Shown here: piece by piece, positions 3,018 through 10,199 of the stretch | Numbering within the stretch: position 1 is the first letter of the stretch | Layout: every line of letters begins with the position of its first letter | DNA from: Escherichia coli | GTDB taxonomy: Bacteria; Pseudomonadota; Gammaproteobacteria; Enterobacterales; Enterobacteriaceae | Assembly: GCF_041886205.1 (NCBI RefSeq) | Contig: NZ_CP169029.1 | Direction: 5' to 3' (one strand) | Length of the DNA stretch: 64,000 nucleotides | Translations under genes and position numbers: made by a program | The notes under the pieces: model-generated | What the model was told of the DNA's origin: nothing | Seen by the model: only the letters and a program-made list of their open reading frames with translations | The model's database searches: none

Positions 3018-3248
3018 TTATTCAAAAAGCAACCCAATTAGTGCATTATAATGTTTCTGTTCCCCTGTCGCTTGTTCCAGTCGGCATAGAAGTTTGGCAC
3101 AAAGCGACTTTCGACTCAGATTACGTCCATCTTTCAAAATCTCAGTCACAATTTCCCCGAGAGTTTCCTGCTGAGTAGGCAAGTTAGCTTTTGCAAAGTA
3201 ACGAGTGATTGCTCCCGCAGAATCTAAAGTCACTGAATTTTGATGCAT
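3018..3248 (-). CDS. ycgZ: YcgZ, first gene of BluR-repressed operon
   Basis: 76-aa ORF beginning MHQNSVTLDSAGAITRYF; divergent from bluF. Confidence 0.8.
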   Translation of the reverse strand: MHQNSVTLDSAGAITRYFAKANLPTQQETLGEIVTEILKDGRNLSRKSLCAKLLCRLEQATGEQKHYNALIGLLFE

Positions 3249-3302: not shown

Positions 3303-3324
3303 CTTGTACGAAATATGTGTACAG
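3303..3324. promoter_or_regulatory. Candidate operator in ycgZ promoter region (TTGTAC-N9-GTACA partial palindrome)
   Basis: Seen in sequence about 55-75 bp upstream of ycgZ start; related to the TTGTACAA palindromes upstream of bluR. Confidence 0.3.
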
Positions 3325-3874
3325 AATGATAAATTAATTTTTTGCATTTAGTGCTAATACATACAAAACAACAAGTTATGATAAAAATTATTGCATCATT
3401 TAAATGACAACCTATACAAAAATTTTCGCCAACTCATCTTTAACTTTTTCCATTTTTTATCAATGTAAAGAAACAGTTATGTTTTGGTATTAAAAGAAAG
3501 ACACCGGAAGATATGTCTGTTACCGTCTTACTCTCACCTCTCCCATTACCCTGGACAGTTAATGCTTACCACCCTTATTTATCGTAGCCATATACGTGAC
3601 GACGAACCTGTCAAAAAAATCGAAGAAATGGTTTCGATAGCAAATCGCAGGAACATGCAGTGTGACGTAACAGGGATCTTACTGTTTAATGGTTCTCATT
3701 TTTTCCAGCTTCTGGAAGGTCCGGAAGAACAGGTTAAAATGATATATCGGGCTATATGTCAGGATCCACGGCACTATAATATTGTTGAACTGCTGTGCGA
3801 TTACGCGCCTGCTCGCCGTTTTGGCAAAGCGGGAATGGAATTATTTGATTTGCGCTTGCACGAGCGAGATGACG

Positions 3875-3883
3875 TTTTACAGG
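3875..3883. repeat. Left copy of 9-bp target-site duplication TTTTACAGG
   Basis: Identical 9-mer immediately flanks both IS ends. Confidence 0.9.
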
Positions 3884-4940
3884 GGCTTTGTTGAATAAAT
3901 CGAACTTTTGCTGAGTTGAAGGATCAGATCACGTATCTTCCCGACAACGCAGACCGTTCCGTGGCAAAGCAAAAGTTCAAAATCACCAACTGGCCCACCT
4001 ACAATAAAGCCCTCATCAACCGTGGCTCCATAACTTTCTGGCTGGATGATGAAGCTATTCAGGCCTGGTATGAGTCAGCAACACCTTCTTCACGAGGCAG
4101 ACCTCAGCGCTATTCTGACCTTGCCATCACGACTGTGCTGGTCATTAAACGCGTATTCAGGCTGACCCTGCGCGCTGCGCAGGGCTTTATTGATTCCATT
4201 TTTTCTCTGATGAACGTTCCGCTACGCTGCCCGGATTACAGCTGTGTCAGCAGGCGGGCAAAGTCGGTTAATGTCAGTTTCAAAACGCCCACCCGGGGTG
4301 AAATCGCACACCTGGTAATTGATTCCACCGGGCTGAAGGTCTTCGGTGAAGGCGAGTGGAAAGTCAAAAAGCATGGCCAGGAACGCCGCCGTATCTGGCG
4401 TAAGCTGCATCTCGCCGTTGACAGTAAAACACATGAAATCATCTGCGCTGACCTGTCGCTGAACAACGTTACGGACTCAGAGGCCTTCCCCGGGTTAATC
4501 CGGCAAACCCACCGGAAAATCAGGTCAGCCGCCGCCGATGGCGCTTACGATACCCGGCTATGTCACGATGAACTGCGGCGTAAGAAAATCAGCGCGCTTA
4601 TCCCTCCCCGAAAAGGTGCGGGTTACTGGCCCGGTGAATATGCAGACCGTAACCGTGCAGTGGCTAATCAGCGAATGACCGGGAGTAATGCGCGGTGGAA
4701 ATGGACAACAGATTACAACCGTCGCTCGATAGCGGAAACGGCGATGTACCGGGTAAAACAGCTGTTCGGGGGTTCACTGACGCTGCGTGACTACGATGGT
4801 CAGGTTGCAGAGGCTATGGCCCTGGTACGAGCGCTGAACAAAATGACGAAAGCAGGTATGCCTGAAAGCGTGCGTATTGCCTGAAAACACAACCCGCTAC
4901 GGGGGAGACTTACCCGAAATCTGATTTATTCAACAAAGCC
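3884..4940 (+). mobile_element. IS903-group insertion sequence (IS5 family), 1057 bp, 18-bp terminal inverted repeats GGCTTTGTTGAATAAATC
   Basis: Terminal IRs read at 3884-3901 and 4923-4940 (reverse complement); single transposase ORF; 9-bp TSD. Confidence 0.9.
3961..4884 (+). CDS. IS903-type DDE transposase (307 aa from GTG start; track ORF starts at upstream ATG 3916)
   Basis: Protein VAKQKFKITNWPTYNKALINRGS... recognised as IS903/IS102-like transposase. Confidence 0.85.
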   Translation: MAKQKFKITNWPTYNKALINRGSITFWLDDEAIQAWYESATPSSRGRPQRYSDLAITTVLVIKRVFRLTLRAAQGFIDSIFSLMNVPLRCPDYSCVSRRAKSVNVSFKTPTRGEIAHLVIDSTGLKVFGEGEWKVKKHGQERRRIWRKLHLAVDSKTHEIICADLSLNNVTDSEAFPGLIRQTHRKIRSAAADGAYDTRLCHDELRRKKISALIPPRKGAGYWPGEYADRNRAVANQRMTGSNARWKWTTDYNRRSIAETAMYRVKQLFGGSLTLRDYDGQVAEAMALVRALNKMTKAGMPESVRIA

Positions 4941-4949
4941 TTTTACAGG
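4941..4949. repeat. Right copy of 9-bp target-site duplication TTTTACAGG
   Basis: Seen in sequence. Confidence 0.9.
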
Positions 4950-5961
4950 CCGTATTCGACAAAGGCACATCAAAATTTCAGCTAACTTATGATGACAGAG
5001 CGCTACAATTTTTTCGTACTTTTGTCCTTGCAACCGAACAATCAACCTATTTCGAGATCCCTGCCGAAGATTCCTGGCTTTTTATCGCTGACGGATCTGA
5101 TAAAGAACTTGATTTCTATACCCTTTCACCAAATATAAACGACCGCTTTGCCTTTCATCCAATTGTCGATCCCTTATCGCGGCGGATAATCGCTTTTGAA
5201 GCCATTGTGCAAAAAAATGAAGATAGCCCATCAGCTATAGCGGTTGGGCAGCGTAAAGACGGGGAAATCTACAAAGCGGATCTCAAAAGTAAGGCGCTTG
5301 CATTCGCGATGGCACACGCACTTGAGCTCGGTGATAAAATGATTTCAATCAATCTATTACCTATGACCCTGGTTAACGAACCTGACGCAGTCTCTTTTTT
5401 ACTTAATGAAATAAAGGCCAATGCTCTGGTGCCTGAACAAATCATCGTTGAATTTACTGAAAGTGAAGTCATATCTCGGTTTGATGAGTTTGCCGAAGCG
5501 ATTAAATCGCTAAAGGCTGCTGGTATCAGTGTAGCAATTGATCATTTTGGCGCAGGTTTTGCTGGTTTGTTACTCCTGTCACGCTTCCAGCCTGACAGAA
5601 TTAAAATCAGTCAGGAATTGATTACCAATGTTCATAAAAGTGGGCCACGGCAGGCAATTATTCAGGCGATCATAAAATGCTGTACATCACTTGAAATTCA
5701 AGTCAGTGCTATGGGCGTGGCAACACCAGAAGAGTGGATGTGGCTTGAATCCGCAGGAATTGAGATGTTTCAGGGGGATCTGTTTGCTAAAGCTAAATTG
5801 AATGGTATCCCTTCCATAGCGTGGCCGGAGAAAAAATAATTTTCAGCACATTCTTTCACATGATTTCAGTAAATCATCGTGAAAATGAATACGTTATGTT
5901 TAAATTTAATCCACATTAAAAATAATGTTTCATCCAAATTAGCTGAAATCTTATTTATACT

Positions 5962-5989
5962 TTGTACAATTTTAGCGTATATTGTACAA
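5962..5989. promoter_or_regulatory. Two copies of the self-complementary octamer TTGTACAA spaced 20 bp start-to-start, upstream of bluR
   Basis: Read directly; 55-80 bp upstream of bluR start; position typical of an operator within a promoter. Confidence 0.35.
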
Positions 5990-6043
5990 AGTATTATTGG
6001 GTCGTGTACAGGCGACGGAGATTTATGACCGCAAGGAGGAATT

Positions 6044-6775
6044 GTGGCTTATTACAGCATTGGTGATGTTGCTGAACGTTGCGGGATTAATCCTGTCACT
6101 CTCCGGGCCTGGCAACGCCGCTACGGTTTGTTAAAACCACAGCGCAGTGAAGGCGGACACCGACTCTTTGATGAAGAAGACATACAACGTATCGAAGAGA
6201 TCAAGCGTTGGATAAGTAATGGCGTCCCTGTAGGCAAAGTTAAAGCATTACTGGAAACCACCAGCCAGGATACGGAAGATGACTGGAGCCGCCTGCAAGA
6301 AGAGATGATGTCAATTCTTCGTATGGCTAATCCTGCCAAACTACGCGCAAGAATTATTTCACTGGGTCGAGAGTACCCAGTAGATCAATTGATTAATCAT
6401 GTTTACCTTCCTGTTCGCCAGCGTCTCGTGCTTGATCACAACACCTCCCGCATTATGAGCAGTATGTTTGACGGCGCATTAATTGAATATGCAGCAGCCT
6501 CGCTTTTCGAAATGCGCCGTAAGCCCGGTAAAGAAGCCATTCTGATGGCGTGGAATGTTGAAGAGAGAGCACGATTGTGGCTGGAAGCATGGCGTTTATC
6601 ATTGTCAGGATGGCACATTTCTGTTCTTGCTGATCCCATTGAATCGCCGCGCCCGGAACTGTTCCCGACGCAAACATTGATTGTCTGGACAGGCATGGCA
6701 CCAACAAGAAGGCAAAACGAACTTTTACAACATTGGGGTGAGCAAGGTTATAAAGTCATCTTTCATGCCCCCTAA
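6044..6775 (+). CDS. bluR: MerR-family repressor BluR (YcgE)
   Basis: 243-aa ORF with N-terminal MerR HTH ([27 protein letters not shown]); synteny. Confidence 0.85.
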
Positions 6776-6994
6776 TTTCACCTTTATCCCGCCCCTTAGA
6801 CAGAATGTTATAATCTGAACCCACAACAGCGTTTGTACCGGAGCTGGTCCGTTGCAAAATGCTCACCGGACAATTCAGGTAATCCCCCTTTCACACTTTG
6901 TACATATCACAGCCAAAGGACAGACCAGATTGAAGTGGTAAAACCGATCGTGCACACTACGCAGTCTCACAACTAACAAGAGGTTATTATCCTG

Positions 6995-7399
6995 ATGGAT
7001 CAGGTCGTTGTTTTTCAAAAGATGTTTGAGCAAGTGAGAAAAGAGCAAAACTTCTCCTGGTTTTATTCAGAATTAAAACATCACCGTATTGCACATTACA
7101 TTTATTATCTGGCTACGGATAACATCAGAATTATTACTCACGATGACACGGTTTTGTTATTAAGAGGAACCAGAAACCTGTTAAAAGTTAGTACGACCAA
7201 GAACCCTGCTAAAATAAAAGAGGCCGCATTGCTTCATATTTGCGGAAAATCTACATTTCGGGAATACTGCTCAACACTGGCAGGCGCGGGCGTTTTCCGT
7301 TGGGTTACTGATGTTAATCATAACAAACGCAGTTACTACGCCATTGATAATACGCTTTTATATATTGAAGATGTAGAAAATAATAAACCATTAATCTAG
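6995..7399 (+). CDS. ycgX: YcgX (DUF1398 family) protein
   Basis: 134-aa ORF; synteny. Confidence 0.7.
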   Translation: MDQVVVFQKMFEQVRKEQNFSWFYSELKHHRIAHYIYYLATDNIRIITHDDTVLLLRGTRNLLKVSTTKNPAKIKEAALLHICGKSTFREYCSTLAGAGVFRWVTDVNHNKRSYYAIDNTLLYIEDVENNKPLI

Positions 7400-8948: not shown

Positions 8949-10199
8949 TTACATGTTCTTGATGATCGCATCACCAAATTCTGAACATTTCAGCAGTTTA
9001 GCGCCTTCCATCAGACGTTCGAAGTCATAGGTTACGGTCTTGGCGTTGATTGCGCCTTCCATACCTTTAACAATCAGGTCTGCGGCTTCAATCCAGCCCA
9101 TGTGGCGCAGCATCATCTCAGCAGAGAGGATGATAGAGCCAGGGTTTACTTTGTCCTGACCGGCATATTTCGGCGCAGTACCGTGGGTGGCTTCAAACAG
9201 GGCGCATTCGTCACCGATGTTTGCGCCAGGGGCGATACCAATACCACCAACCTGCGCTGCCAGGGCGTCAGAAATGTAGTCACCGTTCAGGTTCATACAG
9301 GCGATAACATCATATTCAGCCGGACGCAGCAGGATCTGTTGCAGGAACGCATCAGCGATCACGTCTTTAATGACGATCTCTTTGCCGGTATTCGGGTTTT
9401 TAACTTTCAGCCACGGGCCGCCGTCGATCAGTTCTCCGCCAAACTCTTCACGCGCCAGCTGGTAGCCCCAGTCTTTAAACGCGCCTTCGGTGAACTTCAT
9501 GATGTTGCCTTTGTGCACCAGGGTCACAGAGTCACGATCGTTAGCAATTGCGTATTCGATCGCTGCACGAACCAGACGTTTGGTGCCTTCTTCCGAACAC
9601 GGCTTAATACCGATACCGCAATGTTCCGGGAAGCGAATTTTCTTCACGCCCATCTCTTCACGCAGGAATTTAATCACTTTCTCGGCGTCGGCAGAGTCAG
9701 CTTTCCATTCGATACCCGCATAAATGTCTTCCGAGTTTTCACGGAAGATAACCATATCGGTCAGTTCAGGGTGTTTAACCGGGCTTGGAGTGCCCTGATA
9801 GTAACGTACCGGACGCAGGCAGATGTAGAGATCCAGTTCCTGACGCAGGGCAACGTTGAGAGAACGAATACCGCCACCAACCGGAGTGGTCAGCGGGCCT
9901 TTAATGGCAACGCGATATTCACGAATCAGATCAAGGGTTTCAGCAGGCAGCCAGACATCCTGACCATAAACCTGTGTGGATTTTTCACCGGTGTAAATTT
10001 CCATCCAGGAGATTTTACGCTCGCCTTTATAGGCTTTCTCGACTGCAGCGTCGACCACTTTCAGCATGGCTGGGGTTACATCTACACCGATTCCATCACC
10101 TTCAATGTAAGGGATAATCGGATTTTCAGGAACGTTGAGTTTGCCGTTTTGCAGGGTGATCTTCTTGCCTTGTGCCGGAACAACTACTTTACTTTCCAT
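8949..10199 (-). CDS. icd: Isocitrate dehydrogenase (NADP), native C-terminus with no e14 junction
   Basis: 416-aa [41 protein letters not shown]... Confidence 0.97.

Follow-up and report, generated by a model that had tools for sequence, protein, structure and literature searches.

We describe here a palindrome in the spacer between bluF and bluR, identified in a 64-kb stretch of Escherichia coli DNA (the window), and consider which protein is likely to bind it. The gene order, taken from the list of open reading frames together with the K-12 annotation, is pdeG (192-1757), ymgC (2047-2295), ariR (2408-2674), ymgA (2703-2975) and ycgZ (3018-3248, with its ATG at 3248) on the minus strand, then bluF (ycgF; 3562-5839), bluR (ycgE; 6044-6775) and ycgX (6995-7399) on the plus strand, and icd (8949-10199) on the minus strand. 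ycgZ comes first in the BluR-repressed operon ycgZ-ymgA-ariR-ymgC, bluF encodes the BluR antagonist, and bluR starts with GTG and encodes a 243-residue protein with the Pfam domains MerR_1, MlrA_helical and MlrA_C. The bluF-bluR spacer is 204 bp long, and between 5700 and 6200 the window shares 98.8% identity with K-12 and 100% with strain 6EVA. The bluF gene is intact in K-12 and is split in this strain by an IS903B-like element of 1057 bp (3884-4940), which has the inverted ends GGCTTTGTTGAATAAATC, encodes an IS5-family transposase (NF033579), and is flanked by a 9-bp target duplication, TTTTACAGG, at 3875-3883 and 4941-4949. A search of 5,426 complete E. coli genomes gave no match to its left junction. 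BluF is probably non-functional in this strain, and if it is inactive then BluR acts here without its antagonist.

The earlier note on this DNA described two copies of the octamer TTGTACAA, spaced 20 bp start to start and situated about 55–80 bp upstream of bluR, and both parts of this description hold: the copies at 5962-5969 and 5982-5989 are the only two in the window, and they lie 55-82 nt from the bluR GTG at 6044. The number of octamers is in itself ordinary (1.16 expected, with two or more copies in 31 of 100 shuffled sequences), and the core hexamer TGTACA is not enriched in the window (12 seen, 11.96 expected). The paired arrangement TGTACA-N5-20-TGTACA, however, matches solely here, at 5963-5988 and 5983-6010, with 0.05 matches expected and two matches in none of 100 shuffles. 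The symmetry also extends further than the note described, as the octamers form the core of a perfect 14-N10-14 inverted repeat at 5957-5994, the arms of which, ATACTTTGTACAAT (5957-5970) and ATTGTACAAAGTAT (5981-5994), are 100% complementary. We refer to this 38-bp element in the bluR core promoter as the proposed operator OR.

The 5’ end of bluR has been mapped 54 nt upstream of the start codon and the promoter is of the sigma-70 type (PMC3509220), which places the transcription start at about 5990 (6044 minus 54). A consensus scan suggests TATATT at 5978-5983 as the -10 hexamer, ending 7 nt before 5990, and a weak -35 hexamer, TTTATA, at 5954-5959, with an 18 bp spacer between them; we infer these assignments from the reported start-site distance, and they fit the published start. 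The two arms of the palindrome then extend from about -33 to -20 and from about -9 to +5, bracketing the putative -10 hexamer, with a dyad centre at 5975.5 (about -14.5) and a core span of 26 bp. The left TGTACA (5963-5968, about -27 to -22) lies within the -35/-10 spacer, and the right TGTACA (5983-5988, about -7 to -2) overlaps the final base of the -10 hexamer and stops at the start site. Because the arms sit across the core promoter, a protein bound at 5957-5994 should block RNA polymerase, and the overlap, which is a feature of the known BluR operator, is consistent with repression.

Comparison of six diverse E. coli strains with local identities of 96-100% shows that the palindrome is unchanged except for one substitution in its central spacer, and that the 100 nt upstream of it contain 12 polymorphic columns. 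A third TGTACA, at 6005-6010 (about +16 to +21 of bluR and 22 bp after the second hexamer), is TGTAGA in three of the six strains and is absent in other genera, and on these grounds we rejected it as part of the core element. Read together with the flank on its 5’ side (TCGTGTACA), it differs from an RcdA box at a single position. Two further sequences, TTTGTACC (at about 6834) and CTTTGTACAT (6896-6905), are situated between bluR and ycgX, 90-160 nt 5’ of the ycgX start, and could be additional half-sites of the BluR/MlrA type or chance matches.

Lack of conservation in orthologous promoters was named in the earlier note as an outcome that would count against a common operator, and we find instead that the motif is broadly retained. 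Among 19 bluF-linked bluR loci from 13 other genera, an exact pair of TGTACA hexamers is present at the bluR promoter in 10 of the 13, spaced 19 bp apart in Citrobacter, Enterobacter, Kluyvera georgiana, Scandinavium, and Dryocola, 18 bp apart in Cedecea, Klebsiella, and Pectobacterium, and 17 bp apart in Superficieibacter and Silvania. The two helical turns proposed previously thus describe E. coli (20 bp) but do not carry over to other genera, as across genera the spacing is 17, 18, 19 or 20 bp, and mostly 19 bp. Pseudocitrobacter contains TGTACA-N13-TATACA and Lelliottia contains TATACA-N7-TGTACA, and no hexamer pair was found at the Kluyvera ascorbata bluR promoter. When 11 upstream regions are aligned (mean column identity 59%), conservation is concentrated mainly in the two hexamers and the start codon; the 14-nt arms are specific to E. 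coli, and elsewhere the symmetry reaches only 1-2 bases past the hexamer. Across genera the right hexamer lies 54-59 nt from the start codon, and in most of them an A/T hexamer resembling a -10 motif (TAAATT, TAAGTT, or TAGAGT) abuts the right hexamer, so the placement of the two hexamers on either side of the -10 is the conserved design.

A similar pair is found at the promoters of some mlrA genes. Positional mlrA orthologues in the Erwiniaceae, identified by their mlrA-yohO-yehWXY context and without bluF as a neighbour, have TGTACA-N13-TGTACA (Pantoea and Erwinia) or TGTACA-N13-TGTGCA (Mixta) upstream of their own start codons; the mlrA upstream regions compared are at about 2910-2940 of locus L026, 2400-2440 of L028, and 2410-2440 of L029, and at 3646-3866 of L014. 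Upstream of E. coli mlrA there is no equivalent pair, and a single TGCACA is present. Since the Erwiniaceae mlrA orthologues contain it, a pair at the gene’s own promoter looks ancestral to the family, and we suggest from these sequences that self-binding may be ancestral among MlrA/BluR proteins and may have been lost at E. coli mlrA.

The note also recognized a TTGTAC-N9-GTACA arrangement about 55–75 bp upstream of ycgZ and proposed that BluR acts on it. The only TGTAC-N9-GTACA in the window is at 3305-3323 (TGTACGAAATATGTGTACA; TGTACAcatatttcGTACA on the ycgZ strand, which is the minus strand), 57-75 nt from the ycgZ ATG, and comparison with the published footprint shows that it is the validated BluR operator, so this half of the proposal is correct but was already known (PMC3509220). 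Tschowri, Lindenberg & Hengge (2012) footprinted BluR with DNase I on the ycgZ promoter, where a repetitive GTACA...GTACA motif overlaps a palindromic TGTAC...GTACA across the -35 motif and spacer, and with point mutations in the site BluR no longer binds in EMSA and ycgZ::lacZ is derepressed to the level of a bluR knockout (PMC3509220). The ycgZ start site is 36 nt upstream of the ATG, at about 3284, and the promoter-proximal hexamer (3305-3310) occupies -21 to -26. One hexamer is therefore at a like promoter position in ycgZ and bluR (about -21 to -27), with its partner 13 bp upstream at ycgZ and 20 bp downstream at bluR. In other bluF-linked loci the ycgZ promoter keeps TGTACA-N7-TGTACA, with TGCACA or TATACA variants in some genera, and the spacing is 13 bp throughout except in Superficieibacter and Klebsiella, where it is 14 bp.

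The ycgZ and bluR sites thus resemble each other in their TGTACA/GTACA half-sites, in belonging to the same gene module, in overlapping a core promoter, and in the genera that conserve them. They differ in that the ycgZ pair is spaced 13 bp apart and covers the -35 motif and spacer of a sigma-S-dependent promoter, whereas the bluR pair is spaced 17-20 bp apart and brackets the -10 motif of a sigma-70 type promoter, and also in that there are experiments for the ycgZ site and the bluR site is known here from its sequence. The previously suggested common operator is therefore right as to the half-site, which both promoters share, but overstated as to the geometry, and the two sites are two conserved classes built from one half-site.

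The ycgZ-bluF spacer contains other instances of the hexamer. A lone TGTACA is situated 93-98 bp past the promoter-distal ycgZ hexamer in 11 genera (106 bp in Klebsiella; the spacers with a lone hexamer are those of loci L006, L007, L011, L012, L020-L025, and L027), and its E. coli counterpart is a degenerate TATACA at 3413-3418, 95 bp from the ycgZ operator. The K-12 sequence at this position, TTGTATAGA, is noted as resembling an RcdA box in PMC3535384. The lone hexamer, at its distance of about 95 bp, may be an auxiliary operator for looping. Extra wide pairs are present in the same spacer in Klebsiella (TTGTACAA-N22-TTGCACAA; L009 2485-2530) and Kluyvera ascorbata (TGTACA-N26-TGTACG; L011 2475-2515), 116-154 nt 5’ of the bluF start codon, and we note that Kluyvera ascorbata is the one species without the pair at the bluR promoter.

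The properties of the BluR protein are pertinent to how such different spacings could be read. By sequence, the solved structures nearest to the BluR DNA-binding domain are those of Thermus thermophilus CarH/LitR (E about 6e-14) and Myxococcus xanthus CarA. The AlphaFold model has a mean pLDDT of 85.5, falling below 50 only at linker residues 73-76; the full-length model superposes on CarH 5c8e_B with a TM score of 0.70, and its C-terminal half matches the B12-binding domains of CarH-like photoreceptors. As modelled, BluR has the CarH arrangement (winged helix, linker, helical bundle, and Rossmann-like domain) and not that of the coiled-coil MerR dimer. BluR differs from CarH in that, by sequence reading, it is without the B12 His motif, and BluR and MlrA look like B12-less relatives of CarH.

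Proteins of the CarH family have DNA-binding domains that each read an 11-bp sequence, nnnnTnnACAn, within operators described as having an ‘unusual plasticity’ of design; in the CarH tetramer one dimer contacts repeats 22 bp apart, CarH and CarA each act as repressors of the promoter from which their own operon is transcribed, and a light-induced protein antirepressor frees CarA (PMC9304148). These systems parallel BluR in having the closest DNA-binding domain, in reading TnnACA, in operators that overlap the -35 or -10 motif, in control, proposed in the case of BluR, of their own operon’s promoter, in release by light, and in a plastic operator design, and the light-controlled CarA/CarS antirepressor system is a counterpart of BluR with BluF. 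TGTACA corresponds to TnnACA on both strands, so a hexamer would accept a domain in either orientation, and if domains do dock in both orientations then arrangements of 13, 17, 18, 19, and 20 bp are all plausible for one protein. [quoted passage not shown] At bluR there are two self-complementary hexamers 17-20 bp apart (20 bp in E. coli, and 22 bp to the third hexamer), and the intervening 11-bp position within the palindrome has no exact TnnACA, with cGTATA at 5975-5980 as a weak pseudo-repeat.

Taken on its sequence, the element is almost certainly a binding site for a protein of the MlrA/BluR family, and we think it rather probable that the palindrome at 5957-5994 is an operator through which BluR represses its own promoter. 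In such a model the winged-helix domains of an MlrA/BluR protein would read the palindrome with one domain per TGTACA hexamer, one hexamer being in the -35/-10 spacer and the other between the -10 motif and +1, and the occupant in E. coli would most likely be BluR itself. The bound protein would prevent access of RNA polymerase or formation of the open complex, and bluR would be self-repressed. BluF frees BluR from the DNA in blue light and cold, and because of this release bluR transcription should go up in response to the same signal by which ycgZ-ymgABC is derepressed, capping BluR levels and resetting repression afterwards. What the data show is the sequence of the element, where it lies with respect to the published start, how far it is conserved, and that its half-sites are those of the validated BluR element, GTACA / TGTAC, represented by two exact TGTACA copies at bluR; that BluR rather than MlrA is the occupant, and that occupancy represses, we infer. 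BluR acts solely as a repressor and MlrA is a distal activator. Elevated levels of BluR are toxic (PMC3509220), so there is a reason for BluR to limit itself tightly.

Some points speak against assignment to BluR. Kluyvera ascorbata lacks the pair, and the versions in Lelliottia and Pseudocitrobacter are degenerate or rearranged. The hexamers, moreover, are spaced by 20 bp in E. coli and by 17-20 bp in the other genera, compared with the 13 bp of TGTAC-N9-GTACA at the sole validated BluR operator, an arrangement that is not found at bluR. In the study that compared the BluR site with the MlrA box at csgD, BluR does, however, bind this box, with its 18-bp spacing, although more weakly than the ycgZ site (PMC3509220). 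The proposal that BluR acts on its own gene is therefore plausible and is supported by the half-sites, the overlap with the core promoter, the conservation across genera, and the Erwiniaceae mlrA promoters, with MlrA as the other possible binder.

Occupancy of the palindrome by MlrA instead of BluR, either repressing bluR or competing with BluR and so connecting the Ymg/Rcs branch with the curli activator, is in our view unlikely, though it is the alternative that fares best. The recognition helix lies within BluR residues 13-42, a segment that does not vary among all the BluR orthologues examined, and E. coli MlrA is identical over this segment except at residue 14 (the MlrA sequence used was confirmed by tblastn against plasmids). 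Because the recognition regions match, the binder of the site is not assignable from sequence alone. The csgD site is also similar in being a long inverted repeat with TTGTACAA-type arms and A/T-rich flanks: it reads AAAATTGTGCA-N12-TGTACAACTTT in K-12, the MlrA box consensus is AAAATTGTACA(12N)TGTACAATTTT, and cross-talk between the paralogues and their sites is documented (PMC3509220). The 18-bp csgD spacing falls within the 17-20 bp range of the bluR promoters and is the same as in Klebsiella, Cedecea, and Pectobacterium, but these are the only genera with the N12 of the MlrA box, and in E. coli the bluR hexamers are separated by N14. One arm of the csgD box contains TGTGCA, and the bluR palindrome is the better repeat. 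MlrA is known only as an activator that acts from far upstream at csgD, whereas the bluR element is not in an upstream activator location and overlaps the -10 motif and +1. Ogasawara and colleagues reportedly placed the MlrA site at csgD at about -113 to -146 in 2010. The element, moreover, travels with the gene, being found with bluR in at least 10 genera and with mlrA in the Erwiniaceae, which suits self-binding better than cross-binding.

It is distinctly improbable that a different regulator, such as the TetR-type protein RcdA (box TTGTnnACA) or some unnamed factor, occupies the site, or that the hexamers are kept merely as promoter elements. The footprint of RcdA in the ycgF-ycgZ spacer covers DNA rich in TGTACA, and its preference is for TTGTGTACA-type palindromes (PMC3535384), but the bluF-bluR spacer is not among the genomic SELEX targets in the text consulted, and the octamers do not fit TTGTnnACA, since TTGTACAAT and TTGTACAAA have AAT or AAA in place of ACA; we rejected an RcdA box for these reasons. 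The hexamers do contain promoter-like sequences, with TTGTAC resembling a -35 and TACAAT or TACAAA a -10, but a TTGTAC (-35)/TACAAA (-10) promoter would start at about 5997 rather than at the mapped 5990, and conservation of the full hexamers at variable spacing would be left unexplained. A canonical MerR/CueR/SoxR site also has features in common with the bluR element, including a MerR-type winged helix and a location within the promoter. However, the canonical MerR operator is a dyad of 18-21 bp with its centre in a spacer of 19-20 bp, and it activates through DNA distortion. The bluR element does not have this configuration: its dyad centre is at about -14.5 and it spans 26-38 bp, the promoter spacer measures 18 bp, and the fold of BluR is CarH-like. 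We rejected spacer distortion of this kind because of the position and span of the site and the fold of the protein. SrsR (YgfI) is a reported activator of bluR, and its published box has been assigned to the bluF-bluR region. The box, gCAGgTTTTGC, is matched by GCAGGTTTTGC within the bluF coding region at about 5552-5562, away from the palindrome, and we rejected SrsR as the binder of the palindrome accordingly; the SrsR box is a separate, activating input to bluR.

That the palindrome acts as a nucleic-acid hairpin, such as a stem-loop or terminator at the 3’ end of bluF transcripts that read through, is highly improbable and was rejected. The 14-bp stem in E. coli is stable (-16.9 kcal/mol, z = -3.6 relative to shuffles), any two palindromic hexamers can pair, and the orthologues form stems of 8-13 bp, but the hexamers alone are conserved and the extended arms are E. 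coli-specific, z-scores are unremarkable in three of five orthologues (range -0.9 to -3.4), the A/U-rich stem is followed by UAUUGGG rather than a U-tract and so is not the G+C-rich stem and U-tract of an intrinsic terminator, a terminator scan of 5800-6100 gave no terminator-like sites, the palindrome has no Rfam match, and bluR mRNA cannot contain the stem since its start site lies inside the right arm.

A broader and more tentative reading, which we regard as possible but on balance doubtful, brings these observations together. BluR and MlrA would be B12-less proteins of the CarH type, with flexibly tethered domains that each bind a single, orientation-free TGTACA, and would act on a three-part set of operators across the Enterobacterales: the 13-bp pair at ycgZ, the lone hexamer some 95 bp from it, with a potential role in looping, and the 17-20-bp pair bracketing the bluR -10 motif. 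The pair at the gene’s own promoter would predate the duplication that gave rise to mlrA and bluR, and would have been kept at Erwiniaceae mlrA and lost at E. coli mlrA.

The bluR promoter was mapped by Tschowri et al. 2012 with no mention of the bluR palindrome or of autoregulation (PMC3509220). PPTP-seq, a genome-wide CRISPRi-reporter screen that scores autoregulation, lost the bluR guide RNA, and a paper describing a library of tunable transcription factors mentions BluR for growth rate only. We found no report of BluR autoregulation or of the bluR palindrome in the literature searched. Tschowri et al. 2009, which lies outside that search, reportedly used ycgE::lacZ fusions and may contain an earlier result, positive or negative.

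The scope of the finding is modest, in that repressor autoregulation is common and the ycgZ half is in print (PMC3509220); it is the bluR-promoter half that would be a new instance of this common form of control. Nonetheless, BluR is the switch in the E. coli blue-light and cold pathway, which has the Ymg/Rcs system, curli, colanic acid, and OmpF under its control, and the spacing of the hexamers (13 bp versus 18 bp versus 19-20 bp) is a candidate answer to the question of how BluR and MlrA are kept apart. An autoregulatory operator, if it is one, would explain how a protein that is toxic when overproduced is held down, and would make the light and cold induction of ycgZ-ymgABC self-limiting. 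In the strain analysed here, if BluF is inactive, the ycgZ operon and, under the autoregulation model, bluR itself would stay repressed and self-limited. Should the broader reading also be correct, the blue-light circuit would have negative feedback built into it, and the Ymg/Rcs response would be adaptive and not sustained.
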